Shown piece by piece: positions 13,876 to 61,001 of a stretch of DNA of 64,000 nucleotides. The notes beneath the pieces were generated by a model. It worked only from the letters and a program-made list of their open reading frames with translations, was not told the origin of the DNA and did not search any database. The number at the start of each line of letters is the position of its first letter. The first letter of the stretch is position 1. Location of the stretch: IMG/VR virus record IMGVR_UViG_3300045988_130724, positions 12,203-76,202 of that record; one strand, 5' to 3'. The position numbers and the translations under genes are program-made. Source of the DNA: a virus.

Positions 13876-15000
13876 ATGGATTTTAAGGATCAAGTTACAC
13901 AGCTATCTGATAATATAAAAAAACAAAAAGACAAGATAGCTACAGAAGAAGCTACAAAAAACGCATTTATAATGCCAATGATTGCAGCCTTAGGATACGA
14001 TGTTTTTAACCCTTTTGAGGTCGTGCCTGAAATGGATTGTGACTTAATAAAGAAAAAAGGAGAAAAAATCGATTATGCCATAATGAAGAATGAAAATCCT
14101 ATACTTCTTATAGAATGCAAACACTGCAAGCAAGACCTAAACCTGCATGACACCCAACTACAAAAATATTTTGTAGCGTCAAAAGCGCGTTTTGGCGTGC
14201 TTACAAATGGAATAGAGTATAGATTTTACACCGACCTGGAGAAAATAAACATAATGGATGAGAAACCGTTTCTTGTCGTGAACATGCTTGACTTATCAGA
14301 TGCGGATATAGAGCAACTAAAGAAATTCCATAAGTCATATTACAATGAAGAGGATGTTCTAAGTACGGCAAACGAATTGAAATACACGACAGAAATAAAA
14401 TCAATATTGAATAACGAATTTGCATCACCTACAGCAGAATTTGTTCGGTTCTTTGCACGTCAAGTCTACACTTCAGGGCAAATCACATCAAAGGTGATAG
14501 ATATGTTTACCCCACTCGTTAAGAAATCTATCACATCTGTTATTAATGATATTATTTCTGATAGACTAAATACAGCTATAAAAAACAGCGAGCAAACATC
14601 TGACTCACTCCCAACGATAGACAATACATCCATAAATACTTCCACAGAAGATACAGAAGAGAAACTCCCGGGCGGAGTTGTATACATGGATAAAGAATCC
14701 GGTGTCGTAACAACACAAGAGGAATTAGATGCCTACAACATCGTAAGAAGCATTTTAAGAAAAAGTGTGGATGTGGCTCGCATAACCTATAAAGACTATA
14801 AAAGCTACTTCGTTGTAAATATTGATAACAGCCAATGGTACTGGATATGCCGTATTTCTATCGGAGCAAGAAAAAAGCAAATAGGAATACCGGCAGACCA
14901 ATATAAGAGTTGTGAATGGATTCAGATAGACAACGCGGATGATATATTCAAATATGCAGACAGACTTGAAGAAGCATTAAAATTAGCAATGGGGGAATAA
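13876..15000 (+). CDS. PD-(D/E)xK nuclease-like protein with HsdR N-terminal-type domain
   Basis: 374 aa. ATKNAFIMPMIAALGY...KIDYAI...LLIECKH...QLQKYF...FGVLTNGIEYRFY gives the D...ExK core and TNG..Y tail I associate with HSDR_N domains. The C-terminal 170 aa are unassigned. Opposite strand to all neighbouring genes. Confidence 0.65.
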   Translation: MDFKDQVTQLSDNIKKQKDKIATEEATKNAFIMPMIAALGYDVFNPFEVVPEMDCDLIKKKGEKIDYAIMKNENPILLIECKHCKQDLNLHDTQLQKYFVASKARFGVLTNGIEYRFYTDLEKINIMDEKPFLVVNMLDLSDADIEQLKKFHKSYYNEEDVLSTANELKYTTEIKSILNNEFASPTAEFVRFFARQVYTSGQITSKVIDMFTPLVKKSITSVINDIISDRLNTAIKNSEQTSDSLPTIDNTSINTSTEDTEEKLPGGVVYMDKESGVVTTQEELDAYNIVRSILRKSVDVARITYKDYKSYFVVNIDNSQWYWICRISIGARKKQIGIPADQYKSCEWIQIDNADDIFKYADRLEEALKLAMGE

Positions 15001-16565: not shown

Positions 16566-16781
16566 AACAGTTCTTGTTTTTTTTAATTAATGCCGGATAT
16601 CTTCACAGACAACCGGCATGAAAAGACATATGAACAACAAATCAAATTCTCAAAATCGAGCGGAAACACAGATTCGGACTGTGACCTCATATCTGGTTGA
16701 TATGTGTGCATCCATTACACCATTTCCGCAAAACACGTGAGTACAAAGCCCCCACGCTTGGCATTACCTATCAAAAACTTA

Positions 16782-29077: not shown

Positions 29078-30589
29078 CTACAAAAAATCTTTGAGCAGCT
29101 CTTCATCGCTAATAAAGCTGTAATCCCTAGGATAGAATGTATTCGCTAATGCATCCATATAGTCAGGAGAACGCTTGATACGTTTTTTTATGTCTTCTTT
29201 AGCCTCAATGATAACCTTTCCATTACTGAGAAACTTCCATTTAGTTTCAGTCGCTTCTTCCATTAACTGGTCACATGGAGGTAAAGCTGCACCAAATCCA
29301 TTTTTAGGATTGAGCCAGTCGCGCAAAGCCCAATACAAATATGCGCGCATATTGGCAAATTCATATTCTCCGGTAATATCATGCAACCCATCCGCACCTT
29401 CTGAATATTTACATGAAAAAGCATTTGTAAATTTTTCCTCCAATAAGCGGGAATAAACACCTGCCCCCTCTCCTATCGTATCAACAAATGCTTTTGCCCC
29501 TTTCTTCTTTAGGTAGGGAATCATCATACCTACCACGTGCATGTGGTCCGCACGTCCGGCAGATTGATGCACCTCAAACTGCGGCACATAATTACCATAT
29601 CGGAGACAAAGCACGCTATTATCGCGTCCCATACCGGCCACGTCAACACCTAACTTACAAGATTTGGCTGGAATAAAACCGTTTGCTTGTAATTCTTGCC
29701 AATTCCTGTTTGCTATCTCTATCCATTCATAAGGTATAAGTACATCTTCAGAAACTTTCGGGAACATACCAAGTACCTTAACTCGAAATAAATCATTAGG
29801 TCTGTATAGTTTACCTTCCCAATTGAAATCGCCTTCTCCCTCATTGAAATCTGTTTTTTGAATGGGAGAACACCAATTTATTACCTTGTCTTTTACCCAT
29901 TCATAATCCACTTGACCGGGTATTACTATTTGCTTCTTTACTACATTTTCTGCATTTAGAGAGCTAAGCCTGAATTTCGCAAAACGGTCAGACTTCATGG
30001 CACGAGCTGCGTAACCGGTAGTAACATTAGGATTGAACACTATGAGAAAGCGGGAATTACCCTGTAAGTTACCTTCAATAGCGTTGTATGTCGCTTCTGA
30101 TATACCGGAAGCTTCAGTAACAACAAACATGGTATTTACAGCATGGAAACCGGACCATGCTTCTGTGTTGTCATCACCAGCTTTGAACCCCGTTAGAAAC
30201 CACTCTTCGTAATCTGTTTTAATTCCGGAAGACAGTAGACGTCCGGGCAAGAACCCTGCATTTCTAAATAAACGAGATATTTCAGGTATCATTATATTTT
30301 GAACCTGACGAGCTGTAGGAGCTGTCATAGCAATCTTGGTATTCTTAACTAACTTACCTTCTTTCCAACGTGGAGTAAGATACATAAAGCACATAGATGC
30401 ACAAGCTGCAATGTAATCTTTCCCACGAGCTGTGCCCGATGCTACAGCAGTCATTGGATTATGCTGAACGGATTGAAGAATAGCTTGTTGCTCTCTGTCT
30501 AGCCTTGAATGAAGAACATCATGAGCAAACTTGCACCAATCCTCTCGCCATGCTTTCATGTATCGTATAGACTTTTCATCTTTGCTCAT
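29078..30589 (-). CDS. terL: terminase large subunit
   Basis: 503 aa. Walker-A-like VASGTARGKD near the N-terminus. ATGA overlap with the small-subunit gene. Confidence 0.85.
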   Translation of the reverse strand: MSKDEKSIRYMKAWREDWCKFAHDVLHSRLDREQQAILQSVQHNPMTAVASGTARGKDYIAACASMCFMYLTPRWKEGKLVKNTKIAMTAPTARQVQNIMIPEISRLFRNAGFLPGRLLSSGIKTDYEEWFLTGFKAGDDNTEAWSGFHAVNTMFVVTEASGISEATYNAIEGNLQGNSRFLIVFNPNVTTGYAARAMKSDRFAKFRLSSLNAENVVKKQIVIPGQVDYEWVKDKVINWCSPIQKTDFNEGEGDFNWEGKLYRPNDLFRVKVLGMFPKVSEDVLIPYEWIEIANRNWQELQANGFIPAKSCKLGVDVAGMGRDNSVLCLRYGNYVPQFEVHQSAGRADHMHVVGMMIPYLKKKGAKAFVDTIGEGAGVYSRLLEEKFTNAFSCKYSEGADGLHDITGEYEFANMRAYLYWALRDWLNPKNGFGAALPPCDQLMEEATETKWKFLSNGKVIIEAKEDIKKRIKRSPDYMDALANTFYPRDYSFISDEELLKDFL

Positions 30590-30972
30590 TCGTCATCGTC
30601 CGGCAATTCCTGCATCAATTTTTCAAACTGATTCACATTCACATCCTGCTCCACTTTTTCAACATAACCTCTATGCTTCATTTTGGTCTTGCTTAGCCAA
30701 ATAAGCATAGTATTATCTTGTTCCGTCAGAGCTTTGGCAAACATTGTCGTTTCTAGCTTATCATAGAAACTTTCTTCTACTTCTTTCCATTTTTCGGCAA
30801 AATCTGGATCATTCGCTTTCCATTTATAAGCGATTGAGCGTGATATTTCCACAGCCTCACAAGCTGCGGTAACATTCAACATCCTTGCGTCCAAAGCTTT
30901 TAAGAATTTCGCTTTCTTTTGCCTTGTATTAAGCCTGTACTTCTGTGCCATCTTTATTTCCCTCCAATACAT
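30586..30972 (-). CDS. terS: terminase small subunit (HTH)
   Basis: 128 aa with an HTH-like TAACEAVEISRSIAYKWK segment. Immediately upstream of and coupled to TerL. An alternative ATG is at 30951. Confidence 0.65.
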   Translation of the reverse strand: MYWREIKMAQKYRLNTRQKKAKFLKALDARMLNVTAACEAVEISRSIAYKWKANDPDFAEKWKEVEESFYDKLETTMFAKALTEQDNTMLIWLSKTKMKHRGYVEKVEQDVNVNQFEKLMQELPDDDE

Positions 30973-31639
30973 TGTTTACGATTTCCAACATTTTACAAAT
31001 ACTCAAAGCTTGAGCCTTGATTTTATACTTGGCTTGCACTTTAGCTGATACTTCATTCAACCGGTGCATTGTATCCATATCCACCAAAGTTAGATTACCA
31101 AGCTCTTTTTCTGAATAACATTCCAACGTTTCCATGAGTTTATCAAACGAAACCTTCTGCGTATCAACAAACATAAGAGTTACAGGAACGATTTCGTTAT
31201 TCGGCATTTCAACCGTATAGTTGATATCCTTTACACTTTCCAGAACTTCATTGCTGATATGCGCATACTCTTTCAGTGCGACATCTGTTATTTCATCAAG
31301 CAATTGCTTCAGAATCTCCGCATCGTCCTGCCCAACTATACTGTTATGTGACAATTGTGTTGCCAGCAACCAATCGTTTGTAGTTTCCTCTTCATCTATG
31401 TACATAACATGGATGGAAGTAAGCCCAGCCATTTTTGCCGCTTGCGTCCGGTGATTACCACTCACCACCGTATAAGAGCCATCCGAATGCCTTACACAAA
31501 ACGGTACGGACGACAATTGACCGTCCCTACGAATATTATTTACCAAGGCATTAAACGTGTCCTGTTGCATGAAATGCGCATTTTTCTTGACCAGCTTAAT
31601 GTCTGATAACTGTACTTCCGCTATCTTGAATTTTCCCAT
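30929..31639 (-). CDS. ParB N-terminal domain-like protein
   Basis: 236 aa. SVPFCVRHSDGSYTVVSGNHRTQAAKMAGL resembles the ParB/Srx GxxR box. Overlaps the TerS ORF. Confidence 0.65.
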   Translation of the reverse strand: MGKFKIAEVQLSDIKLVKKNAHFMQQDTFNALVNNIRRDGQLSSVPFCVRHSDGSYTVVSGNHRTQAAKMAGLTSIHVMYIDEEETTNDWLLATQLSHNSIVGQDDAEILKQLLDEITDVALKEYAHISNEVLESVKDINYTVEMPNNEIVPVTLMFVDTQKVSFDKLMETLECYSEKELGNLTLVDMDTMHRLNEVSAKVQAKYKIKAQALSICKMLEIVNNVLEGNKDGTEVQA

Positions 31640-31642
31640 ACA

Positions 31643-33730
31643 TTACTCCTTTCTCGGCTCATCACCGTATTTTTTTACAAAAGCTTTTAAAATATCATCC
31701 AATTTTCCACGAATACCCGCATCTTGTATGTAATGGAGTTTACCAACACAGCGTTCATGCAGTCTGAACACTCCCCGATACTTCATACTTACCGGTTTAT
31801 CGGTAAATACAGAAGTGGCAATCACCCCACATTCATGTTTATACCTTATACCCAACTCTGATTTAAATTCTGATGAAAGAACGCCCATTATTAGTAATCG
31901 GCTTAACTTAGGCAGAGGGTGGTCTATGACAAAATCCGATTTCATCCAAACTGCATCCATGCCGTATTTGCTGACCTTCAGGAAGTCAAACATACAAGCT
32001 CCGAACACGTAATCATCCAAGAACCACAAATAACAGAACGGAGCTGATCCGAGTATGATGCCTTTCTTCAAGTAAATCATGCGCAGATAATCAATTTCTG
32101 CCATAGAAGCACGAACAAACCGGAGTTTGCTATTATTTGTAAGTACGTAATCGTCTGGCAACCGTTTATATTTTAGAGGGATGATAGTTCGCTTGTTAAA
32201 ACTGCTGTCTCCACTTTCTACCACATTAGACCAAATATATGTGCGTTGGTCTTTGAATACCTCTCTTCTGCCCATAAATCCATGCTGCGAGAGAGCCATG
32301 TAATTAACTTGTTCTTCATCTATTTCTGCATATTTCGTTTTAGTTCGTTCTTGAGATCCAAAATCATCCAATAAGAAACGCTGTAATGCGTTGCTTGTGG
32401 CTTTCATACCGGAATGAAATTCATTCTGATAGATTAATATGTCATTCTCTTTGCAGTTAAGAATTGCATCTGATATATCAGCACAATAAAATACTTCAAT
32501 AGACTTACTTTTAAGGCTGTCTACGAGCTTTTGGTAACGTTCCGTATACTTTTTATGGTAATGCTCCAATTTTGCCATAAAATCGTCATAAAGCGACTTA
32601 TGGTAAATATCTTGTGAGTTCTTATGCTTCTTGATGGCATTGAACAGATGGATAGTGGCAATAATTTCAGCCGGACTTTCAGACTTGATATTCAGAAACT
32701 CATATTCATCATTAAAACGCAGTTCTTTTATCTCTCCCTTGATTGCTTTATACATCATGTAGATAAAATACTCCTTTGTATACACCTTAATCTCACGGTT
32801 GGTAAGTATTTGCTCTATATCCATATAGTATGAGTTTACCACATGGGCTACATCAAACTTGGCCGCTTCTTTCTTGATGAAAGAAAGCATACGATTTGAC
32901 TTCTTGAACATGGAACCCACTATCGTAACATTATCCGAATGTTCTGCCGCCCAAAGCAACGGTTTGTGCCTTTGGGGAACTTTAGAATAATCAATATGGA
33001 ACGCTTCAATACATTTATCAATTGTAGTGAGTTGCTTATATTCCTCCATGTCTTCATGTAGATAGGCATACTCCACGAATGAATACATGAATTTGATTGT
33101 TTCCAGAATTTTATCGAAATCCCAGGAGCTATTGAAGATCCTAAACTCTGCCGTTCCTATCTTTTCAATAGAACATAAATTAAGCCAGTACCGGATGTGT
33201 CCTCTATCTGAACCATTGCTAAAAACTTTCAGTAGATTTTCAATAGTATCTGCTTCCAATACACGCTTCACTACATCCCAAGGAGGGCTTGGTACGAGAT
33301 ATTTTGTTTCCCACCACTCCGCAATATCGAATATCCGTTTGATTGGATATGCAGTATAATAAGAGAGAACAAACATACGCTTGATAACATTTAAGTCCAT
33401 GTCCTTGATGTACAGATGCGCATCAAAGCCTTCATTCCACATAAGATAGCTCCCTGCATCTTTCATGGTCTGAATAAACTCCTTCATTTCTTGTAAATCT
33501 TCTGCGCAATAATGGTACGGTCGAGTATTTATCTCACCGCCAAACTGGCCGTGATGTGTAACTGCTGAACCGTCTGAGTTATTCATCATGGTCAGCTTGT
33601 TATCCGTCCACTTGTAACCTGATGGAAGTGGTATGCGTTGTTTGTCACCATCCGCAAACTCTAGTTCCATACCAAATGTTCGATTGGATATGTAGCCTAT
33701 CCACCTTTTATCTATATTCATGTTCTGCAT
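31643..33730 (-). CDS. amidoligase-like (glutamine-synthetase-fold COOH-NH2 ligase) N-terminal domain fused to about 450 aa of unknown function
   Basis: 695 aa. FGMELEF...NNSDGS...GGEINTRP...GFDAHLYI matches the Amidoligase_2 pattern as I remember it. The rest is unassigned. Confidence 0.55.
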   Translation of the reverse strand: MQNMNIDKRWIGYISNRTFGMELEFADGDKQRIPLPSGYKWTDNKLTMMNNSDGSAVTHHGQFGGEINTRPYHYCAEDLQEMKEFIQTMKDAGSYLMWNEGFDAHLYIKDMDLNVIKRMFVLSYYTAYPIKRIFDIAEWWETKYLVPSPPWDVVKRVLEADTIENLLKVFSNGSDRGHIRYWLNLCSIEKIGTAEFRIFNSSWDFDKILETIKFMYSFVEYAYLHEDMEEYKQLTTIDKCIEAFHIDYSKVPQRHKPLLWAAEHSDNVTIVGSMFKKSNRMLSFIKKEAAKFDVAHVVNSYYMDIEQILTNREIKVYTKEYFIYMMYKAIKGEIKELRFNDEYEFLNIKSESPAEIIATIHLFNAIKKHKNSQDIYHKSLYDDFMAKLEHYHKKYTERYQKLVDSLKSKSIEVFYCADISDAILNCKENDILIYQNEFHSGMKATSNALQRFLLDDFGSQERTKTKYAEIDEEQVNYMALSQHGFMGRREVFKDQRTYIWSNVVESGDSSFNKRTIIPLKYKRLPDDYVLTNNSKLRFVRASMAEIDYLRMIYLKKGIILGSAPFCYLWFLDDYVFGACMFDFLKVSKYGMDAVWMKSDFVIDHPLPKLSRLLIMGVLSSEFKSELGIRYKHECGVIATSVFTDKPVSMKYRGVFRLHERCVGKLHYIQDAGIRGKLDDILKAFVKKYGDEPRKE

Positions 33731-34586
33731 ATCTCAACTTGACTAATGATTTATAATTGGGAACAAACGTAACCACATCACCAATGCAATAATTTGAGAC
33801 ATAGTCACACTCCATAATTGAGTATTCACTAGAACTATCTACAAACTTCAAATTGGTACAATCACTAATTTGACACTTATCTAAGTCTACCATTGAATAG
33901 CCACAATCCAAAATCAATTGATTACGTTCTGGGTAAATACCTATAATCCTTGTTTCGATTTCTATACCATTAAGACCCTTTCTCACCTCATAATTACAAT
34001 ATGGGATTGTGCCAAACAACATATATTCACCAATACGAACATCACTTATGAAACTAGGCAGTTTACTATTTTGCCCAAGCCAAAAACTACCTCCCAAGCT
34101 GATAGACTCAATATCATTACGCAGGAGATTCCAGATACGGAACAGTTCTTTTTCCGAAGGGTGATTTTCATTCAGACAACCGGAAGTAATCAAACCATAT
34201 ATATGGGAGCTTGAAAGTGTCCTTATTTCATTGGCCAACTTACTTGCTTCATAAATGCTTAAGCCTTCTCTATTATCACATGCATTAATCGGAATATAAA
34301 AATTATGTATTCCTTGGCACGCATTTCCATTGATAGTAAGATATTTCCAAACATCCGCAAATGATGTAACCACAGCGCCGCTATTCCCCTTTACTGCCTT
34401 TCCGATAGAATAGCATATACTGTCTTTTAAATGGAGTCCAAAAATCTTATTTCTTATTTTATCCGATATATGCTCATAAATATCTTCATAAAAATCCTTG
34501 AACATTAACGAAATAGGAACATTAACAAGTGTTCGGGATTTCTCGATATTCTCAATGATATTTTTGGTATAAACTATAACTTTCAT
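33708..34586 (-). CDS. fold-type III PLP enzyme-like protein (alanine racemase / decarboxylase fold)
   Basis: ISLGGSFW and VRIGEYMLFG (compare RPG..LYG). I place the start at the ATG at 34586, which forms an ATGA overlap with the upstream stop. The track start at 34595 is a GTG. Confidence 0.5.
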   Translation of the reverse strand: MKVIVYTKNIIENIEKSRTLVNVPISLMFKDFYEDIYEHISDKIRNKIFGLHLKDSICYSIGKAVKGNSGAVVTSFADVWKYLTINGNACQGIHNFYIPINACDNREGLSIYEASKLANEIRTLSSSHIYGLITSGCLNENHPSEKELFRIWNLLRNDIESISLGGSFWLGQNSKLPSFISDVRIGEYMLFGTIPYCNYEVRKGLNGIEIETRIIGIYPERNQLILDCGYSMVDLDKCQISDCTNLKFVDSSSEYSIMECDYVSNYCIGDVVTFVPNYKSLVKLRYAEHEYR

Positions 34587-35512
34587 AGCTCCCACTTTAA
34601 GATTAGACGTTCAATCCCTTTGTATTTGATATCTCTTTTGAATGAGAACCCTGCATTGATGAAGCTCTTCATGCTTGCCTCATTCTTGGGTGATGTCATA
34701 GCAAATATCTCTTGTACACCATTAGAAACCAATTTTGCTATATTTGCATTAATAAGTATATACTGGAATCCGTTACCCCTATAATCAGCATGAACAAAAC
34801 ATTTATCCACGTAGGCAGTACCATATTCAGTAAAGTACGTAAGAGAATAGGCAACCAGCTTGTCATTTACCAGTAACCCGAAACTGCAACCGGATTGCAG
34901 GCATTTCACTATATCTTCCTTTTCAGAAGGAAAACACATATCAGGATTAACAAAAAGAGTTTGCTCCATTTTTTCAATATCGGATGTATCAGATATAGAC
35001 AATACTTTCACTTGTATCTTATACTCAATATTTCCTTTTTTTACTGGAAACAATGGTTCGTAACGGTCAATCCATGCTTTAGATAGGAATGTGTCTATGT
35101 CAGTTTTAGGCAACAATGCTTTTCTGTAACTGTCAAAGATGCCCAATACAAACTCTTTATGTTTGGTAAGTTGTTCATTCTTCAACGGACACTTACCACT
35201 ACGAAAGACAAAACTTTTCTTTACCGATTTTACCCACAAGGGGTAAGTACGACACATGATAGGCTTATAACCATTGTCACATGACTTACAGTCTCTGGCG
35301 AAACATTTTGCCTTTTTACCGCCAAAATAATCATCGTCTATAATCTGCAAATGGGAGATTTCTTCTTGGTGCCCATCAAGTTCATGGGGCAATATTACAA
35401 TATGCCCGTCCGACCCGAACGAACAACATTTCCAACCGCAACCGGAGTTTTCACATGCTCTTATTAGTCCTTTTTCGTCCATATATTTGGTTGTATATAA
35501 CTTCATATACAT
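34583..35512 (-). CDS. YkgJ-type Cys-cluster domain fused to GNAT acyltransferase
   Basis: The N-terminal half has CENSGCGWKCC...CFARDCKSC...KPIMCRTYP (CxxCxxCC family). The C-terminal half has HADYRGNGFQ...SPKNEASMKSFINAGF (GNAT motifs A and B). Confidence 0.65.
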   Translation of the reverse strand: MYMKLYTTKYMDEKGLIRACENSGCGWKCCSFGSDGHIVILPHELDGHQEEISHLQIIDDDYFGGKKAKCFARDCKSCDNGYKPIMCRTYPLWVKSVKKSFVFRSGKCPLKNEQLTKHKEFVLGIFDSYRKALLPKTDIDTFLSKAWIDRYEPLFPVKKGNIEYKIQVKVLSISDTSDIEKMEQTLFVNPDMCFPSEKEDIVKCLQSGCSFGLLVNDKLVAYSLTYFTEYGTAYVDKCFVHADYRGNGFQYILINANIAKLVSNGVQEIFAMTSPKNEASMKSFINAGFSFKRDIKYKGIERLILKWEL

Positions 35513-35550: not shown

Positions 35551-35706
35551 TTAACACAAAATTCAATCATCTATAAGTCACTCACAAGAACACCTATGCA
35601 ATCTATTCGGCTTCTTTACAGTCGTGTCAGATGGCAATTACCATCACCCCGTAAACTGCACAAGCTTTTATGTTCTTGCTTCTGCTTATCGCTACTATAA
35701 GGGTTG

Positions 35707-35776
35707 AGCGGAAACAGGGAGTCGACCCCCACTCTTTGGCTGGAATGCCAACGCTCTACCGATGAGCTATTTCCGC
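35707..35776 (-). tRNA. tRNA-Gly(UCC)-like, irregular anticodon loop
   Basis: GCGGAAA-TA-GCTC-ATCGGTA-GAGC-G-TTGGC-ATTCCA-GCCAA-AGAG-TGGGG-GTCGACT-CCCTG-TTTCCGC-T. G1:C72, C2:G71, G3:C70, U73 and UCC fit Gly identity. Total length is only 70 nt, the anticodon loop is 6 nt as drawn, and the T-stem has two G-U pairs. Confidence 0.6.
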
Positions 35777-35898: not shown

Positions 35899-35927
35899 TG
35901 CAGAAGACTTTAAAAAAGTCTTCTGCA
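35899..35927 (-). terminator. 12-bp perfect hairpin after the DUF488 gene
   Basis: tgcagaagactt-taaaa-aagtcttctgca, 55 nt after the stop at 35982. No clear U-tract. Confidence 0.4.
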
Positions 35928-35981: not shown

Positions 35982-36386
35982 TTAGAACAAACTTGCTTGT
36001 TCGTACTTAGGTTCTTTCTTCTCAACTACTCCAAATTCTGTTATCTCAATGCCAGTCTTTTCAGTAAGCCACTTTGCCAAAATATGCCGATGGCAGAAAT
36101 CACCTGGTTTTTCATAACAGCAGAGAGCAACATCTTTACCTTCACTGTGTCGTTGGATAGTTTGAATCAATTCTTGCGGATTGACTTTTGCAAGAACATC
36201 ATTCAAATACATACTCGTGTACTCTTCATAAGTCCATTTATCATCCAACATGTATCTTCTTGGTGCAACCTCTATGATCTGAGGTGCATTATAAAATCTT
36301 GGCCTCCCTAACGCAACACATATCATTTTTACGTTTGCAGCTGCTAGTTTTCTGTAATTCCCGAAATAACTTGTATAAATCCTCAT
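35982..36386 (-). CDS. DUF488 family protein
   Basis: MRIYTSYFGN...ALCCYEKPGDFCHRHILAKWL matches DUF488. The ATG at 36386 is preferred because a -7 box lies inside the longer track ORF. Confidence 0.7.
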   Translation of the reverse strand: MRIYTSYFGNYRKLAAANVKMICVALGRPRFYNAPQIIEVAPRRYMLDDKWTYEEYTSMYLNDVLAKVNPQELIQTIQRHSEGKDVALCCYEKPGDFCHRHILAKWLTEKTGIEITEFGVVEKKEPKYEQASLF

Positions 36387-44694: not shown

Positions 44695-45429
44695 TTACTC
44701 TAATTGTTTATCGAAAATCTTAATACATTCAAATAAATAGTGCGCAATTATAGGTTGTACTGCATTGCCTATACACTCCGTTCTGTCCACCCTATCGGGA
44801 AGTTCATTAGACTTTCCAGCAAATCGGGGTGAGGGTATTGACTGTCTTGTTCTCCATCCCGGATATACTCGTGTATATTGCCCCGATAGGTAGGGCTTCC
44901 GAAATATCGATTCTTGGATGCTCCTTTTGCTGTTGATTTCACAGGAGTAGGCAATACAATATAATCGCTCCCGACCCTGTTGTATACCAAAGTCGGTGCC
45001 TGATAAACATTGCCATTCTGCATCATACCCGATTTCGGAAAGGTCGCATAAGACCCGTTCAAATCCCCGAATAAGGAGCATTGGACTGTTTTCAATGATG
45101 ATGTATTTAGGTCTAACTTCCCGTATAACTCGGTACATTTCAGTCCATAAGCCACTTCTTTCACCGACAATTCCGACACCTTTTCCAGCAACGCTGATGT
45201 CTTGGCAAGGGAATCCACCGCTGATGATGTCAACAAATGTTGGATTTGAATACGTTCTAATATCTCTGTTGATTTCATGGTTTTCTCCAAAATTTTTTTT
45301 GATTATACTTGCTTGATAGTCTTCATATTCGCAGCTCCAAAGTGTTTTTATTCCGGCAAACGCTGCGCCCAAGCCGAAACCTTCTATCCCACTAAACAGA
45401 GAGCCATGAGTCAATTTACTTTGCTTCAT
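44695..45429 (-). CDS. DNA (cytosine-5)-methyltransferase, compact
   Basis: Motif I LFSGIEGFGLG, motif IV GGFPCQDIS, motif VI ENSP, motif VIII QQGRERLY, motif X GNAV. The ATG at 45429 is preferred (244 aa). The track start at 45504 overlaps the upstream gene. Confidence 0.9.
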   Translation of the reverse strand: MKQSKLTHGSLFSGIEGFGLGAAFAGIKTLWSCEYEDYQASIIKKNFGENHEINRDIRTYSNPTFVDIISGGFPCQDISVAGKGVGIVGERSGLWTEMYRVIREVRPKYIIIENSPMLLIRGFERVLCDLSEIGYDAEWQCLSGTDFGIQQGRERLYCIAYSCEINSKRSIQESIFRKPYLSGQYTRVYPGWRTRQSIPSPRFAGKSNELPDRVDRTECIGNAVQPIIAHYLFECIKIFDKQLE

Positions 45430-45448
45430 CTCTATATCGTTTTGAGGG

Positions 45449-45679
45449 TTATTCACTATCGTATTCTGACATGATTTCCAAAATATCGCTTTGTATATTT
45501 TCATCAGTTAACATGTGCTCAACTAATTCTTTTTGCTGCGAGGGTGTGGCTATAATACACTTCACTATTTTATTGCTATCGGTAGCCATTATTATAATTC
45601 CACCTTCGCGAGTCTTAGGTAGGCGTACTGCTATTTCTTTAGCAAATGCCTCTACGTCTTGAATAAATTGACATTCCAT
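45449..45679 (-). CDS. hypothetical protein
   Basis: 76 aa ORF. Confidence 0.5.
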   Translation of the reverse strand: MECQFIQDVEAFAKEIAVRLPKTREGGIIIMATDSNKIVKCIIATPSQQKELVEHMLTDENIQSDILEIMSEYDSE

Positions 45680-45719: not shown

Positions 45720-46901
45720 CTAAGCCTCCTTAAGCTCTCCATTGACTAGCATATACCATGTGTCAGCCTTAACCTTTTCCCCGTCAACTTCAAACGCCTT
45801 GACCTCCTTAATCGGGTAGGTATTACCGTTCCATTCTCCACGTTCTGCGAGGACTATCCAGCAACCTATAGCTCCCTTAGCCTTACACCCGTATCCGGCA
45901 GCAAGAGCAATGCTATCCTTGCCTGTGGCTGATGCTGCACCTCGGTCGCCGGTGGCTGATGCTGCACCATAGTTGCCGGTGGCTGATGCTGCACCTCGGT
46001 AGCCTGTGGCTGATGCTGCACCATAGTTGCCGGTAGCTGATGCTGCACCTCGGTCGCCGGTGGCTGATGCTGCACCTTGGTAGCCGGTGGCTGATGCTGC
46101 ACCTTGGTAGCCTGTGGCTGATGCTGCACCTTGGTAGCCGGTGGCTGATGCTGCACCTTGGTAGCCTGTGGCTGTCTTACCCTTCTTCCACTTGCATTTT
46201 TCAAACGTAAACTTAACGGCTGCGTCTACAATACTCTTAATACTTAGTTCCGCTCCTATGTGGATTTTTGAGCAAGCAATTTTCGTATCATCCGTATCTA
46301 CGTCCATATCGCCAGTCCCCTCAACCTCGTGAAACTTATTCATACCAACTGTGGCAGGTGGATAGTAACCGAACACGTCCAACGGATGGAGGCAGAAGTG
46401 AAATCCGTTACCGCAAGCCGTTATATCGCCTGTTTCTTCATAGTCCTTACCTTCTTCGTATTGGAAATCCCTACATGTCATATCGGGGTTAAAACCTTTG
46501 TAGCCTTTGATTTTGACAAACTCCTTTGGCAGGGTAACGTTATCCGGCAAGTTTGCTCTAAGTACCATGTACGCCATGTAGCTGGCATCAAATCCGGCTA
46601 TCCCGGTGCCAATGGCAGTTAGGAGAAATTCCTTTTCTGGGTGCTCGTTAGCGTAATTCCCGAAGTTCCCTAAAAATACGACCAACTCTTCTTCGGTAAC
46701 TTTCTGCATATCCTTGTCCAGCGTAGGAATGGCATAGGACTGACCTTGTATTCCTTCTGCCTGCCCCATAATTGCGCCAAATTTCTCAACTGCCAATCTA
46801 GCTGCACCTCCGGCGTGATTGCCGTTCATGTTGCTTCCAAAAACGAATATTTGATTTTCTTTCAGTTCCTGAATATTCTCAGGTGTTAATTCTCTTTTCA
46901 T
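45720..46901 (-). CDS. three-part protein: Rossmann-like GSN..G.H.GGAA domain, ACGNGFHFC domain, 9-aa tandem repeats
   Basis: The N-terminus IFVFGSNMNGNHAGGAARLA...GQSYAIPT resembles the family labelled A1S_2505 phage non-structural protein (LOG/DprA-like by my recollection). The centre has ACGNGFHFCLHP. Then nine GAASATGxx repeats. Confidence 0.7.
   Translation of the reverse strand: MKRELTPENIQELKENQIFVFGSNMNGNHAGGAARLAVEKFGAIMGQAEGIQGQSYAIPTLDKDMQKVTEEELVVFLGNFGNYANEHPEKEFLLTAIGTGIAGFDASYMAYMVLRANLPDNVTLPKEFVKIKGYKGFNPDMTCRDFQYEEGKDYEETGDITACGNGFHFCLHPLDVFGYYPPATVGMNKFHEVEGTGDMDVDTDDTKIACSKIHIGAELSIKSIVDAAVKFTFEKCKWKKGKTATGYQGAASATGYQGAASATGYQGAASATGYQGAASATGDRGAASATGNYGAASATGYRGAASATGNYGAASATGDRGAASATGKDSIALAAGYGCKAKGAIGCWIVLAERGEWNGNTYPIKEVKAFEVDGEKVKADTWYMLVNGELKEA
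45921..46172 (-). repeat. 27-bp tandem repeat, about 9.3 copies (coding)
   Basis: Unit ggtggctgatgctgcaccttggtagcc. Variation is confined to the 6 nt encoding the xx dipeptide (YQ, DR, NY, YR). Confidence 0.95.
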
Positions 46902-57707: not shown

Positions 57708-58625
57708 TTAAAGTTCTATCTTATCAAAATCAATACCTTTTTCATTCATAAAGTCACCCAGCGCAATGATGTTTTCACGGGTAGTAGTAACCTTGAAAGC
57801 TCTCGTTAACAACTCAGGCTGTTGTACTTCGGGATGATTAATAAAAGGAGGCTGTTCGTTGGCTTTTTGTCCTGCCATGGCAAACGGATTGATCGGACGG
57901 GATTTGGCTTGTTCTACTTCAGCAGCTTTACGGGCTTCTTCAGCAGCCTTTCTTTCCCGCTCAGCCTTGATGCGCGCCTCTTCTGCTGCCTTGGCACGCT
58001 CACGCTGCTCCTTCAGACGGTTGGCATACTGGATGGTGGATGAGATATTGAGCGTATCCATATAATAAGTACGAAGGACATCGAAATCCTCACAAAACCC
58101 CTTTAGCGTGGAAAGTTCGTTTTCGACTTTGGAGAATATGGAATCAATTTCGTTGCATACAGACTTCATGCTTGCTGATTTGTTGAGCCACTCCGGTTTA
58201 AATACCTTGTTGAAATCCACAAGGTTAACATTCAATCCATCAAAGTAAGTCTTGATAGTGGCTTTCTTCCTATCCTTGTATTGCTGTTCGTTTTGCTTGA
58301 CTACCGTGTCAATCTTGGCAGAGCACTCGCCGATAAGTTTCACGGTTTCGGTTACAACGTCCTTGAACTCCCCGAAAGGTTTCATGAATTCTTTCTCAAT
58401 TTCAAGACGTTTGGCATTGAGGGCTTTCGCCGCCTTGTTTAAAGCTGCCTTGTCTTTCTTTGCCTGATCGATATTCTCATCGTTATAATTGGAGATATCA
58501 TACATTGGCAAAGCGGCTTTTACCATATCTCTGATTTGCTTTGCGTTGGTAGTAAGACTACCTAACGTCTTTTCACTCACAACCAGTTCTAGGTCGCTTT
58601 CTTGAATTGCTAATTGTGTGTTCAT
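57708..58625 (-). CDS. DUF1351-like recombination-module protein
   Basis: 305 aa, coiled-coil with a Lys/Ala/Glu-rich segment. Its position next to the exonuclease is as in Gram-positive phage modules. Confidence 0.45.
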   Translation of the reverse strand: MNTQLAIQESDLELVVSEKTLGSLTTNAKQIRDMVKAALPMYDISNYNDENIDQAKKDKAALNKAAKALNAKRLEIEKEFMKPFGEFKDVVTETVKLIGECSAKIDTVVKQNEQQYKDRKKATIKTYFDGLNVNLVDFNKVFKPEWLNKSASMKSVCNEIDSIFSKVENELSTLKGFCEDFDVLRTYYMDTLNISSTIQYANRLKEQRERAKAAEEARIKAERERKAAEEARKAAEVEQAKSRPINPFAMAGQKANEQPPFINHPEVQQPELLTRAFKVTTTRENIIALGDFMNEKGIDFDKIEL

Positions 58626-59308
58626 TGCTCTATATCGGCTATTTGGTTAATAATATCGTCTGCCATACGAATGCGATTCTCCATTTCCGCAAAAACCTTT
58701 TCATCTGGTAGTATGCGAACAATATGGATAGGATCTTTTTGGAAAGGATTGTAAGCAACAAAATCCGTCCAGATTGCATTACAGCACATCATGTGAGCCA
58801 TACACTGATAGAAGTATTCATACTTGACTTTGAGGAGCGAATCATTGTCATAAACTTCACTCTTATATTTCATAAATGTGTTCTGAGACGGACATTTTAT
58901 CTCAATACATCCACGCTCCCCAGATTCTTCATCATAAAAGAACCCGTCAGGACTACTGGCAAAGTTGGGGATAGTGGGGTGTTTACACGACCCCACTTCT
59001 ACAATATGCCTTCCTGTTAACCTTGAATACAAATCACGTGCGCTTGCTTCCTGTTCTGTTCCGAATCTCATTGCTTTGCTCTCTACATTAACAGCAGACA
59101 AATACTCGGCAAACGCAATATCATCGTTTACAATCTCAGGATTCATAGCTCTTTCTGCCGCAACTTGGAAAATGTAATTCTTGGCAGTATCGCTGAACAT
59201 GTCACTTCTGCCGCTTTTCATAATCAAGCCGACATTACTACCAGTAATGTTTCCGAGACGCTCACGCATCCATCCTATGGTCCTTTGTTCAAAATTGTAA
59301 TTCATCAT
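58622..59308 (-). CDS. YqaJ-like (lambda Exo-type) exonuclease
   Basis: RTIGWMRERLGNITGSNVGLIM...GCIEIKCP carries YqaJ/PD-(D/E)xK signatures. Confidence 0.75.
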   Translation of the reverse strand: MMNYNFEQRTIGWMRERLGNITGSNVGLIMKSGRSDMFSDTAKNYIFQVAAERAMNPEIVNDDIAFAEYLSAVNVESKAMRFGTEQEASARDLYSRLTGRHIVEVGSCKHPTIPNFASSPDGFFYDEESGERGCIEIKCPSQNTFMKYKSEVYDNDSLLKVKYEYFYQCMAHMMCCNAIWTDFVAYNPFQKDPIHIVRILPDEKVFAEMENRIRMADDIINQIADIEQ

Positions 59309-60237
59309 ATATCTTTATATTTAAATCTGTAACCATTTGATTGTCCAATTCTACCCCTACAACAATTACATATTGAGCCGAAATTTGTGCCTGTTGCATT
59401 GCCTGCTCCAATAATTGAAGGATATTCAGACAGAAACGAACCATCTAATGAAAAGACTAATACCGCTTTACGGTATTTTTCTTTAGATTTACGCATATTT
59501 ATTATAGCCTGTTTTGTTTGCTTATAACCTGTTTTGTATATGCGCTTTTTATTTGCCAATTTAGGTAGATCCTTCCCTTTATAATTTTTTTTATAGACCC
59601 ATCTATACCCACCAGCTGTTTTCCTTTTTCCATTACAACAAGCTACAATATGGGTTCGTAATGCCCCTGTCTCACTTTGAGCATAATAAGGACTTTTATA
59701 CTCCATGATAAAATCACCACTTATAGTAAACTGCATTACTGGAAATCCTCTAATACGGAGTTTTTCTCTTGTAGATTCTTTAAATATGCGTCCCTTGTTT
59801 AATAACCCTATCTTTTTCTTAACTTCTTCTGAATGGTGGAAACTTGGCCTACAGTTTTTCAACCATTCCCTTGTTAATGGGTTATTCATATTCTCCTTGC
59901 CTGTGCACCATCGCAAATTATTAACATTATTATCTGTCTTTATACGATTTATATGATCAATAAATGGCTTTTTATCAGGATTAGGAATAAAAGCTTCTGC
60001 TACAACTCTATGTATCCTCATGAGCTTTCGTTTACCAAAACTGGAACTAAAGCAGTACTGAGGATAGCCAAACGCGCTTAAACTGGCTTTAAGAATTTTA
60101 CCTTTCCTAAACTCTATCTTTCCATCACGTTTATGCAAGTTAATATCAAGAGATTTAATTCTTCCATAGTTGGACACTTGGTATCTACCCTCATATCCAA
60201 CTATATCTTTCCATATTTCACCATCATTTTCCATCAT
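59305..60237 (-). CDS. free-standing HNH homing endonuclease (NUMOD4 plus HNH_3 plus DNA-binding repeats)
   Basis: EIWKDIVGYEGRYQVSNYGRIKSL (NUMOD4). DHINRIKTDNNVNNLRWCTGKENMNN (HNH_3). The C-terminal half repeats ...GGYRWVYK / NGYRFKYK. Confidence 0.8.
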   Translation of the reverse strand: MMENDGEIWKDIVGYEGRYQVSNYGRIKSLDINLHKRDGKIEFRKGKILKASLSAFGYPQYCFSSSFGKRKLMRIHRVVAEAFIPNPDKKPFIDHINRIKTDNNVNNLRWCTGKENMNNPLTREWLKNCRPSFHHSEEVKKKIGLLNKGRIFKESTREKLRIRGFPVMQFTISGDFIMEYKSPYYAQSETGALRTHIVACCNGKRKTAGGYRWVYKKNYKGKDLPKLANKKRIYKTGYKQTKQAIINMRKSKEKYRKAVLVFSLDGSFLSEYPSIIGAGNATGTNFGSICNCCRGRIGQSNGYRFKYKDI

Positions 60238-61001
60238 AACAGTGTTTTTTGAACAGGTTTATCATTTGCTTTAGTTTGGGGCTGATTTACCGGCTGTTCT
60301 GCTTTTGGTTGTCCTTCAACTCCTGCGGCTTTTGCTGCGATTTCGGCAAGTTTATTAGCTTTAGATTCTTTATCTGTGACATCCTCATATTCAGTAAACT
60401 TAACTTCTTGTTCTTCTTGCGTGTACATTGCACCCAATTGGGCTGGAAAAGCTTCACGTAATGCTTGAACCTTGGCAATCTTGGAAATCATGGTAGATTT
60501 TTTTTCATTCCATATAGACTGCTTTTTATCGTACTCGGAAAGATTTACTTTCGCTACAATAGGGAATTTACGGTCAGAACGGTAAACTTCACACCACCCA
60601 CCAACAAGAACATCTGTTTTTTCATTATAGAAGCATCCTTCCACCTCTACAATTTGATTGTCTCTAACTAGAATAATACCGGCTTTGAAACCTTCATATT
60701 GCTCACTCGCATCAGCACGTTTGAAAAACGCTTCTTTACTGACAATCATTTGCGCTGGCTGTTGCCCGAATTTTACGAGAAATGCCTCATTCAAGAACGG
60801 GTTAAGCTGGTTGAATTTACAAATACTGATAAACTGTACAATATCTTGGTCAGAGACCTGACCGTTACCTTTTGTCAGATAGTTGCGTACAATATCAAAT
60901 GACAACGCCACATCATTACCTGCGACTTGGTAAATAGTCTTGCCTTTACCAAATATTGCCAATGCATCATTTTCTTGCTTTGTTAACTTGTTTTCTTCCA
61001 T
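60234..61001 (-). CDS. recT: RecT-family single-strand annealing protein
   Basis: QFISICKFNQLNPFLNEAFLVKFGQQPAQMIVSKEAFFKRA is RecT-like. Paired with an exonuclease in the module. Confidence 0.75.
   Translation of the reverse strand: MEENKLTKQENDALAIFGKGKTIYQVAGNDVALSFDIVRNYLTKGNGQVSDQDIVQFISICKFNQLNPFLNEAFLVKFGQQPAQMIVSKEAFFKRADASEQYEGFKAGIILVRDNQIVEVEGCFYNEKTDVLVGGWCEVYRSDRKFPIVAKVNLSEYDKKQSIWNEKKSTMISKIAKVQALREAFPAQLGAMYTQEEQEVKFTEYEDVTDKESKANKLAEIAAKAAGVEGQPKAEQPVNQPQTKANDKPVQKTLL

Follow-up and report, generated by a model that had tools for sequence, protein, structure and literature searches.

Why does a phage place amide-forming and amino-acid-transforming enzymes immediately ahead of its terminase genes, and what do these enzymes act on? 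The question is raised by a 64,000-nucleotide stretch of phage DNA (IMG/VR virus record IMGVR_UViG_3300045988_130724, positions 12,203 to 76,202; hereafter, the window), in which a tRNA gene and four minus-strand open reading frames (ORFs) run into the genes for the small and large terminase subunits, TerS and TerL. The first-pass annotation of this DNA had proposed that an amidoligase, a pyridoxal 5'-phosphate (PLP) enzyme and an acyltransferase encoded by this cassette serve a DNA hypermodification that takes place ahead of packaging. Hypermodification of DNA with grafted amino-acid moieties is the best-supported reading after our analysis, with the Mom protein of phage Mu, to which that annotation had pointed, as the closest mechanistic precedent, but the enzymes that had been named are not the core of the system. 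We put at roughly 0.55 the probability that the cassette directs a late, pre-packaging hypermodification in which DNA is glycylated in a tRNA-Gly-dependent manner and the amidoligase, together with a racemase-like PLP enzyme and a small GNAT, elaborates the product. The engine would be the C-terminal two-thirds of a 695-amino-acid (aa) protein, consisting of a Dam-like and a GNAT-phage-like domain, acting with its ParB-like neighbor. The cassette appears to be a second, widespread functional counterpart of Mu Mom.

The approximately 450 residues that follow the amidoligase domain of the 695-aa protein, which had been considered unplaceable, were assigned by Pfam to a Dam-like domain followed by a GNAT-phage-like domain. 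The latter matched PF22559 at an E value of 3.5e-25, and a Foldseek search with the AlphaFold2 model returned, for this C-terminal domain, GNATs at E = 3e-5 and Mu Mom (8bv8_B) at E = 2e-4; the domain has the GNAT fold expected of a Mom-type enzyme. In an alignment of 94 sequences, conservation was concentrated in this domain, where G577, D599 and the motif PVSMKYRG were 100% conserved. The complete conservation of PVSMKYRG argues for catalysis, and we predict that the GNAT-phage-like domain is the catalytic core and carries out aminoacyl transfer. Searching for homologues with just the C-terminal domain retrieved nothing but fragments. In one 1,068-aa representative (P0213), the GNAT-phage-like C-terminal part (query aa 130-189, the SMKYRG region) was matched in 11 separate stretches, an odd repeat architecture.

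The likeness to Mom is one of fold. HHalign of the 94-sequence profile against Mu Mom gave a probability of 0.2%, and no Mom family was among the Pfam matches; we therefore did not class the GNAT-phage-like domain in the Mom family. Mom has an essential insertion resembling a helix-turn-helix (HTH) at residues 175-209 and the catalytic residues R111, S124 and R151. In the AlphaFold2 secondary structure, aa 506-695 contained no HTH insertion; S610, S648, K650 and R652 of this domain are invariant.

The Dam-like domain scored 25.4 bits against PF22555, just below the cut-off of 27, and distant relatives matched PF22556. In the AlphaFold2 model of the 695-aa protein (predicted local distance difference test [pLDDT] score of 86), Foldseek aligned this region to Escherichia coli Dam (2ore_F) over 281 columns with an E value of 2.6e-3. 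The window protein lacks the motifs of a Dam-type N6-adenine methyltransferase: neither the FxGxG S-adenosylmethionine loop nor the (D/N/S)PP(Y/F/W) catalytic motif (DPPY) is present in its Dam-like domain, and relatives consisting of the core alone carry GCSGNF and xPTY in their place. A comparison of the core Dam-like domain with E. coli Dam by hhalign was not significant (E = 0.15), although motifs I and II align, so we use "Dam-like" as a statement about the fold only. PDB sequence-profile searches with the full fusion family and with the core-only family gave no matches.

Directly downstream of the fusion gene lies an ORF for a 236-aa ParB-like protein. Its match to ParB_N (PF02195; 29 bits versus a cut-off of 26.3), together with matches to phrog_7405 (2e-56) and to ParB structures in the PDB, bore out the ParB/Srx-fold call of the first-pass annotation. 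The protein has the N-terminal nucleoside triphosphate-binding domain and the box II arginine of this fold, and its box II reads GNHR instead of GERR; G61-N-H-R64 aligns with the GERR of 4umk, and G61 and R64 are 97% conserved. We identified no recognized DNA-binding domain in the protein, and no HTH family was matched. A canonical chromosome-partition ParB was rejected given the score against TIGR00180 (37.7 versus 58.45), the lack of an HTH match and the fact that no ParA was seen in the neighborhood.

Upstream of the tRNA gene lies a DUF488-N3a gene (PF22751, 40.4 bits versus a cut-off of 27) with conserved C107, E109 and C115-H116-R117. Its likely start is the ATG at 36386 (MRIYTSYFGN), and a search of the PDB with the protein gave no match.

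The distribution of these genes separated core from accessory components. When one genome per species was scanned with a profile, 79 loci were obtained, which were then searched with hidden Markov models built iteratively from the cassette proteins; in essentially all of these ~80 loci the Dam-like/GNAT-phage-like gene was followed directly by the ParB gene, with DUF488 usually near and TerS often just downstream. Counting all samples, the module immediately precedes ParB at some 160 diverse loci. The loci belonged to phages and lineages of Bacteroidota, Bacillota, Proteobacteria, Nitrospirota, Planctomycetota and Actinobacteria and to one archaeon (Methanobacterium). In a second, profile-based sample of 80 independent core-only viral loci, ParB adjoined the core gene in 69 and DUF488 was present in 55. 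Cultured Gordonia, Mycobacterium and Faecalibacterium phages carry the core as well; for example, gp28 of Gordonia phage Sting, annotated as a DNA methyltransferase, matched PF22555 at 3e-94 and PF22559 at 3e-52 and has a ParB gene downstream. A single-sequence scan of 1.84 billion representatives yielded at least 421 core-family clusters at 50% identity, with protein lengths peaking at about 430 aa for the core and about 680 aa for the amidoligase fusion, and more than 560 IMG/VR stretches encode a relative. The invariant core is thus the Dam-like/GNAT-phage-like module plus ParB, accompanied by DUF488-N3a and a tRNA-Gly. Public labels for core-family proteins are "amidoligase enzyme," "DNA methyltransferase" and "hypothetical protein," and the domain assignments given here correct them.

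The gene junctions tie the cassette to packaging. Read directly on the sequence, the four ORFs, their overlaps and the 3-nucleotide (nt) gap were as first described. The stop codon of the 309-aa ORF and the ATG of the PLP ORF share an ATGA (34586-34583); since homologues of the PLP ORF begin at MKV, its true product is 292 aa long rather than the 295 aa of the ORF as listed (33708-34595). The ATG of the 695-aa ORF at 33730 overlaps the preceding stop codon (33708-33710), and this ORF is joined to ParB by TAA-tgt-ATG, with the gap at 31640-31642. The ParB stop codon (30929-30931) falls within the start of TerS, whose ATG is at 30951 (MAQKY, as relatives have) or 30972, and TerS and TerL overlap by an ATGA (30589-30586). 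These observations support one coupled late unit comprising the four ORFs, TerS and TerL, and translational coupling to the terminase genes implies late timing, as for Mom. The same synteny next to terminase genes was found in many other phages. More than 80 near-identical IMG/VR contigs, whose sample names point to human-gut and Human Microbiome Project metagenomes, carry the same cassette gene order, as do relatives at identities as low as 23 to 30%; the order is therefore not due to chance. A nucleotide search of GenBank phages found no relative of the window, and PADLOC returned nothing relevant for the four cassette ORFs.

Ahead of the unit, as had been noted, are a tRNA gene, recognized by both ARAGORN and Rfam, and a hairpin formed by a perfect 13-nt inverted repeat upstream of the tRNA gene. 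The hairpin has no T-run, and its assignment as a canonical intrinsic terminator was unsupported.

The tRNA gene, which had been treated only as a landmark, turned out to connect the core to glycine. A tRNA-Gly(tcc) gene abutting the core gene in mycobacteriophage Jeon prompted a scan of all loci for tRNAs. In 60 loci, 14 of 15 tRNAs were Gly-type, and in the amidoligase clade they occupied the same position as in the window, between DUF488 and the enzyme genes. Among the 80 independent viral loci, 47 carried tRNAs, and 48 of the 50 tRNAs were Gly-type (UCC in 26, CCC in 11, ACC in 8 and aberrant anticodons in 3). Forty-three of these 48 lay at most 360 nt upstream on the same strand, and the two non-Gly tRNAs (one Leu, one Met) were both kilobases away. 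This linkage across loci makes the tRNA a component of the cassette. We rejected the interpretation of the tRNA as an integration-site remnant, since it is full length, internal to the phage genome and directly upstream of the enzyme gene on the same strand, also in cultured phages.

One lineage departs from glycine. In the subclade of Faecalibacterium phage FP_Brigit (66 to 99% identity), this position is taken by a tRNA-Lys(CUU)-type gene in 51 of 52 tRNA-bearing loci (including L251-L330). The tRNA-Lys gene (4747-4823 in FP_Brigit itself) lies ~160 nt upstream of the core gene and its acceptor stem starts with C1-G72; several copies have aberrant anticodon loops. tRNA identity therefore follows the enzyme lineage, which suggests that the FP_Brigit subclade is a lysine-specific branch.

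The window tRNA (Rfam, 47 bits, E = 7e-9) has G1-C72, C2-G71, G3-C70, U73, C35 and C36; its anticodon loop, AUUCCA, is 6 nt long and its T-loop reads GUCGACU. The AUUCCA loop is kept in ~80 close relatives and in a distant locus (L093) whose fusion protein is only 26% identical. In the T-loop (35717-35730), G54 creates a GTCGAC palindrome in the window and in one other locus (L001); nearly all close relatives have UUCGAUU or UUCGACU. Across 24 representative tRNAs, G1-C72, C2-G71, U73, C35, C36 and A37 were invariant, as was G3-C70, which we take to be part of the identity set of the glycyl-tRNA synthetase (GlyRS) of E. coli. The remaining stem pairs covaried, with 96.6% pairing, 127 double-change cells and none of 500 shuffles reaching the observed score. 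The invariant positions include GlyRS determinants listed by Rietmeyer et al. (PMC7826273).

The 83 distinct cassette tRNA sequences, which fall into 23 clusters at 75% identity, include no GCC isoacceptor and 9 with an ACC anticodon; at least 26 have an anticodon loop that is not 7 nt long, TGC replaces TTC in the T-loop of 11, and the D-loop GG is missing from 26. The cassette tRNAs thus combine retained GlyRS identity with degraded ribosome and EF-Tu features, the hallmark of non-proteogenic tRNA-Gly; judged by their sequences, they look built for charging, not decoding.

Alternatively, the tRNA itself could serve as the substrate instead of being the donor. Gly-tRNA would then be acylated, by either the GNAT-phage-like domain or the small GNAT and in the manner of the toxins TacT and AtaT, or be modified in another way, and host translation would be reprogrammed or shut off late in infection. 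The cassette does encode two GNAT domains, and TacT, likewise a GNAT, has Gly-tRNAGly as its specific target (as cited in PMC13219725). A toxin of this kind, however, needs no decoding-defective tRNA of its own, nor ParB, a Dam-like domain or amide ligases, and the conserved GlyRS identity elements suggest that charging, rather than decoding, is what matters. We consider this explanation quite improbable.

The window contains a second tRNA-Gly-type gene, at 16658-16729 (minus strand) in the structural module, with an ACC anticodon, A33 and TCC in the T-loop. This gene and the cassette tRNA gene have the same acceptor stem (GCGGAAA/UUUCCGC) and are therefore probably paralogues; the genes flanking the second one had no Pfam matches.

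These features bring to mind the chemistry described for Mu Mom, a GNAT that moves glycine from Gly-tRNAGly to N6 of adenine in double-stranded DNA (Silva et al., Nat Commun 2026, PMC13219725). Once on the base, the Mom adduct rearranges to yield N6-carbamoylmethyl-dA; every tRNA-Gly isoacceptor can act as donor, and, according to the authors, the donor was not predictable from the structure (PMC13219725). The cassette resembles Mom in having a GNAT-fold catalytic domain, a connection to glycine tRNA (biochemical for Mom, genetic linkage for the cassette) and late, pre-packaging expression; a double-stranded DNA adenine target and an anti-restriction logic are predicted. In contrast, its GNAT has no sequence relationship to Mom, and whereas Mom works on its own, as one enzyme drawing on host tRNA, the cassette has several components, namely the Dam-like domain, ParB, DUF488, its own non-canonical tRNA-Gly and amide-forming and amino-acid-transforming enzymes. 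Given these additional enzymes, the final adduct is predicted to be larger than +57 Da.

From the observed gene architecture, domain folds, conservation and tRNA-Gly linkage, we infer glycyl transfer, an adenine target in DNA, an order of steps and a final adduct as follows. Host GlyRS would charge the cassette-encoded tRNA-Gly; since the tRNA keeps GlyRS identity and its 6-nt anticodon loop is expected to make it a poor decoder, it may serve as a dedicated glycyl donor, like staphylococcal cell-wall tRNA-Gly. A DNA base, most plausibly adenine at N6 as in Mu Mom, would then receive glycine from Gly-tRNA through the GNAT-phage-like domain, while the catalytically degenerate Dam-like domain would handle the flipped base or the DNA itself, with ParB as an activator or DNA clamp. 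In this phage lineage, the fused amidoligase would subsequently form an ATP-dependent amide between the glycyl amine and a carboxylate, probably that of an amino acid, which the PLP enzyme would supply or transform, probably to the D-form, and the small GNAT would N-acylate a remaining amine. Acylation or alkylation of the amine would also block a Mom-type rearrangement.

Several observations weigh against this scheme. Approximately 40 to 45% of core loci have no nearby tRNA, and some close relatives (L005-L078) carry Phe-GAA (with one AAA-anticodon variant), Ser-GCU and Cys-GCA tRNAs ~150 to 300 nt upstream of the constant Gly-type tRNA, implying that the intergenic site between DUF488 and the cassette is also a general tRNA hot-spot. 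What points to Gly-tRNAGly as the donor is the genetic linkage to tRNA-Gly, and what points to DNA as the acceptor is the ParB partner, the Dam-like fold and the terminase context. Of these, the likeness to Dam is weak by the Pfam, Foldseek, PDB-profile and hhalign results given above. No sequence relation between the GNAT-phage-like domain and Mom is detectable, and in Foldseek the fold of this domain matches generic GNATs (Naa60, Naa50) at least as well as Mom. The domain also lacks the usual Q/RxxGxG/A loop, and its model has no helix between beta5 and beta6, such that donor and acceptor cannot be read from the fold.

The tRNA-free loci, the additional Phe, Ser and Cys tRNAs and the degenerate Dam-like motifs would fit a scenario in which the tRNA supplements translation in the ordinary way, or acts as a processing signal, at an inter-module hot-spot and the core is a non-enzymatic packaging or partition accessory, for example, one that marks the pac site through ParB and an inactive methylase. 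It is hard to reconcile with the specificity of the linkage, which is to Gly-type tRNAs in 48 of 50 and 14 of 15 cases and to tRNA-Lys in 51 of 52 cases in the sister subclade, with the retention of aberrant anticodon loops across phages whose fusion proteins are only 26% identical, with the absence of GCC, the commonest isoacceptor, or with the complete conservation of PVSMKYRG, which argues for catalysis. We regard this scenario as quite improbable.

Protein is a more serious candidate for the acceptor, albeit an unlikely one. The GNAT-phage-like domain would act as an aminoacyl-tRNA-protein transferase of the L/F-transferase or Fem-like kind on a packaging, virion or host protein, the ligases would extend the tag and the Dam-like domain would be an inert scaffold, in keeping with the loss of its methyltransferase motifs. 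Amidoligase_2 proteins were reportedly first predicted, by Iyer and colleagues in 2009, to make peptide-type modifications. Aminoacyl-tRNA transferases of GNAT fold with peptide and protein targets are, moreover, well known (reviewed in PMC13219725). This explanation has to contend with an invariant partner of ParB fold, with a second domain that resembles a DNA methyltransferase and with a unit welded to TerS and TerL, and no conserved candidate acceptor protein accompanies the core.

DNA glycylation also accommodates the remaining cassette enzymes, although these proved to be clade-specific accessories rather than the heart of the system. The profile and model evidence was consistent with the motif-based calls made for them, with one partial exception. 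Amidoligase_2 (PF12224) matched aa 62-218 of the 695-aa protein at E = 1.5e-8, above the gathering threshold (35.2 bits versus 22), and the alignment contained the conserved acidic, His and Arg catalytic residues of the family, with T18/G20/E22/E24, E66/N68/R70, H105, R180 and E195/R197 invariant. The N-terminal domain also matched phage amidoligases among the BFVD viral models, and UniProt holds a 96%-identical entry, "Amidoligase enzyme [Siphoviridae sp. ct4Uy2]." On sequence grounds, the domain is a glutamine synthetase-like ATP-dependent carboxylate-amine ligase, added as a clade-specific N-terminal fusion.

The 292-aa protein missed curated sequence cut-offs (20.7 versus 22 for PF14031 and 30 versus 480 for the NCBIfam Orr model). 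Its AlphaFold2 model (pLDDT of 91.6) matched D-serine dehydratase 3anv best in Foldseek (E = 8e-15, TMq of 0.77), followed by D-threo-3-hydroxyaspartate dehydratase, D-threonine aldolases and alanine, lysine and broad-spectrum racemases. The TIM barrel, the beta-domain and the PLP lysine on strand 1 are all present, and K33, R187 and Y233 were invariant in 31 sequences. The modeled structure confirmed that the protein is a fold-type III PLP enzyme resembling alanine racemase and D-Ser dehydratase. A C-terminal His/Cys pair, which we take to form the metal ligands of D-Ser dehydratase-type enzymes, was not among the invariant residues of the alignment.

The partial exception was the 309-aa protein, for which a fusion of a YkgJ-type cluster and a GNAT had been proposed. 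Its C-terminal half (approximately aa 166-309) is indeed a GNAT (PF00583, E = 3e-7, 31.2 bits versus 20.7) and holds the R-G-x-G acyl coenzyme A loop as YRGNGF. The N-terminal half is Cys-rich (C-x4-CGW-x-CC ... GYKP-x2-CR-x-YP) and CxxCxxCC-like, but had no Pfam match at E < 0.05; aligned by hhalign to a PF03692 member from a relative locus (L083), it gave an E value of 0.054, with C..C..KP..CR.YP in register. The CxxCxxCC/YkgJ assignment was thus unconfirmed by either method and stands at the motif level. In L083, the CxxCxxCC ORF (PF03692, 5.5e-11) is placed after ParB, and in another relative (L084) the Cys-cluster and GNAT halves are separate ORFs.

In the neighborhoods of homologues with 28 to 50% identity, the gene order was DUF488-N3a, small GNAT, PLP-like, fusion protein, ParB, sometimes CxxCxxCC, TerS and TerL. 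The amidoligase fusion is mainly limited to Bacteroidota-type prophages, and within this group one variant carries the PLP-like, small GNAT and Cys-cluster genes, while another has an opine dehydrogenase (Octopine_DH, PF02317, 1.6e-27) upstream and one or two D-Ala-D-Ala ligase (Ddl)-type ATP-grasp enzymes between ParB and TerS. Thus, the amidoligase, PLP enzyme and Cys-cluster/GNAT protein are swapped in sister clades and do not belong to the core. Glycine and pyruvate combine in the strombine reaction; by similar chemistry, the glycyl amine could undergo reductive alkylation with a keto acid, catalyzed by the opine dehydrogenase of the sister clades, and the resulting carboxylate would be available to the amidoligase and to the ATP-grasp ligases. 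All of the accessory enzymes belong to amino-acid or amide chemistry and are exchanged combinatorially, which supports the proposed elaboration of a glycylated base. Some relatives share a PAPS-reductase-like gene (PF01507) that lies a few kilobases beyond the cassette on its downstream side (15723-16457 in L084/L085, and other loci).

The same enzymes recall peptidoglycan peptide chemistry: a racemase-like PLP enzyme, Ddl-type ATP-grasp enzymes, a tRNA-Gly donor and amide ligases. Since tRNA-dependent natural-product GNATs of the PacB type exist, Fem-like tRNA-dependent chemistry might instead yield a small molecule or a cell-wall-type peptide, such as a peptidyl-nucleoside or a peptidoglycan precursor altered for superinfection exclusion or lysis control. 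However, the enzymes that carry this resemblance are clade-specific add-ons, and the minimal widespread set (Dam-like/GNAT protein, ParB, tRNA-Gly and DUF488) builds no small-molecule scaffold; the ParB and terminase context would be left unexplained as well. We judge such a product slightly less likely still than a protein acceptor.

Three further systems bear on the glycylation scheme. A phage ParB-like protein without a DNA-binding domain is the obligate activator of a DNA-base dioxygenase, and terminases are frequent neighbors (PNAS 2026, PMC13229309). This 5mYOX-ParB (T-dioxygenase) system likewise sets a short ParB-like protein without a recognized DNA-binding domain beside an enzyme that modifies bases post-replicatively (predicted in the cassette) and near terminase genes; it differs in that the enzyme there is an iron- and 2-oxoglutarate-dependent dioxygenase acting on thymine, as opposed to a GNAT-type transferase, and in that box II is GNHR, not GERR, in the cassette.

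Staphylococcal non-proteogenic tRNA-Gly species feed FmhB/FemAB and avoid EF-Tu and the ribosome, a class thought to be restricted to staphylococci (Rietmeyer et al., NAR 2021, PMC7826273). Similar to the cassette, the FmhB/FemA/FemB system has tRNA-Gly(UCC) paralogues that keep GlyRS determinants and deviate in the T- and D-loops (TGC for TTC), a GNAT-fold aminoacyl-transferase working outside the ribosome, and D-amino-acid and Ddl-type enzymes in the associated chemistry. Its acceptor, in contrast, is lipid II, whereas the cassette tRNAs are phage encoded, some with 6-nt loops or an ACC anticodon, and the predicted acceptor is DNA.

Thymidine hypermodification clusters link PLP enzymes, amidoligases and amidotransferases to post-replicative base decoration (Lee et al. 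2018; PMC8989533). They share with the cassette a combinatorial, natural-product-like gene organization but enter through 5-hydroxymethyl-2'-deoxyuridine, the 5-HMUDK kinase and aGPT-Pplase, whereas tRNA aminoacyl transfer is the predicted entry here. Consistent with the first-pass annotation, none of the 30 window ORFs scanned encodes a synthase for 5-hydroxymethyluracil or hydroxymethylcytosine, a base kinase or DpdA.

The accompanying statement that no pathway with this domain set had been described was too strong. Pfam families for the core domains, the tRNA-dependent chemistry of Mom and ParB-dependent phage base modification are already known and published. The cassette proteins and their relatives are members or near-members of PF22555/PF22556 (DAM-like-phage1/2), PF22559 and PF22751, which bear fold-based names without demonstrated function. 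These families presumably stem from work by Burroughs and Aravind in 2023, which is said to have predicted nucleic-acid-modifying and DNA-end-processing systems. Our literature search on amidoligase, ParB, GNAT, phage and tRNAGly retrieved no description of the cassette, and it found neither an operonic tRNA-Gly or tRNA-Lys linkage, nor a non-proteogenic character of such phage tRNAs, nor the amidoligase/racemase/GNAT extension or its opine-dehydrogenase/ATP-grasp alternative.

Table 1. Cassette and terminase features in the window, listed in the direction of transcription
Feature	Position	Strand	Basis or remark
DUF488-N3a protein	35982..36386	-	PF22751; listed ORF reaches 36437
Hairpin, perfect 13-bp inverted repeat between DUF488 and tRNA	35899..35927	.	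Arms 35899-35911 / 35915-35927
Cassette tRNA-Gly-like gene	35706..35776	-	ARAGORN; Rfam tRNA
Cys-rich domain and small GNAT fusion, 309 aa, accessory	34583..35512	-	PF00583 for GNAT half
Fold-type III PLP enzyme, 292 aa, accessory	33708..34586	-	Alignment, AlphaFold2, Foldseek
Amidoligase_2 domain, aa 1-265 of 695-aa protein	32936..33730	-	PF12224
Degenerate Dam-like domain, aa 266-505 of 695-aa protein	32216..32935	-	PF22555 below cut-off; Foldseek
GNAT-phage-like domain, aa 506-695 of 695-aa protein	31643..32215	-	PF22559
ParB-like protein, 236 aa	30929..31639	-	PF02195, phrog_7405
TerS, small terminase subunit	30586..30951	-	phrog_4044 at 1e-12; HTH_Tnp_1_2
TerL, large terminase subunit	29078..30589	-	phrog_2 at 2e-27

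Outside the cassette, the window (38.7% G+C) has the gene content of a phage genome, including an SPP1-type portal, RecT/YqaJ recombination genes and a C5-cytosine methylase. The last of these (44695-45504, minus strand; PF00145, E = 5e-40) is truncated, covering profile positions 4-181 of 324, and its presence suggests that the phage probably also carries 5-methylcytosine. A NUMOD4/HNH_3 homing-endonuclease-like gene (59305-60237, minus strand) sits between the YqaJ exonuclease (58622-59308) and RecT (60234-61001) genes. On the plus strand, inside the minus-strand structural module and near the second tRNA gene, is a moron-like gene whose product carries the type I restriction domain HSDR_N (13876-15000; PF04313, 4e-15), and a gene in the early region (45720-46901, minus strand) encodes DUF7666 (7e-37) together with collagen-like repeats.

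Taken a step beyond the window, these results may point to a large family of phage DNA-aminoacylating systems that is independent of Mom, depends on ParB, uses its own non-proteinogenic tRNAs (Gly, and Lys in the FP_Brigit lineage) and builds peptide-like base adducts, e.g., N-acylated D-aminoacyl-glycyl-adenine, in abundant gut phages. We advance this broader view tentatively and would sooner bet against it than for it in its entirety. If it is true, tRNA-dependent DNA aminoacylation would be no curiosity of phage Mu: the strategy would be in wide use, with an unrelated GNAT family and that family's own partners carrying it out. It would also give a partial answer to why phages carry tRNA genes, namely a non-translational role; tRNAs that are charged but do not decode were previously known only for staphylococcal cell-wall tRNA-Gly. 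Finally, the exchange of accessory enzymes would predict a family of new peptide-like DNA adducts (peptidyl-DNA) that may be relevant to restriction evasion, to sequencing artifacts in gut viromes and as a source of enzyme tools.

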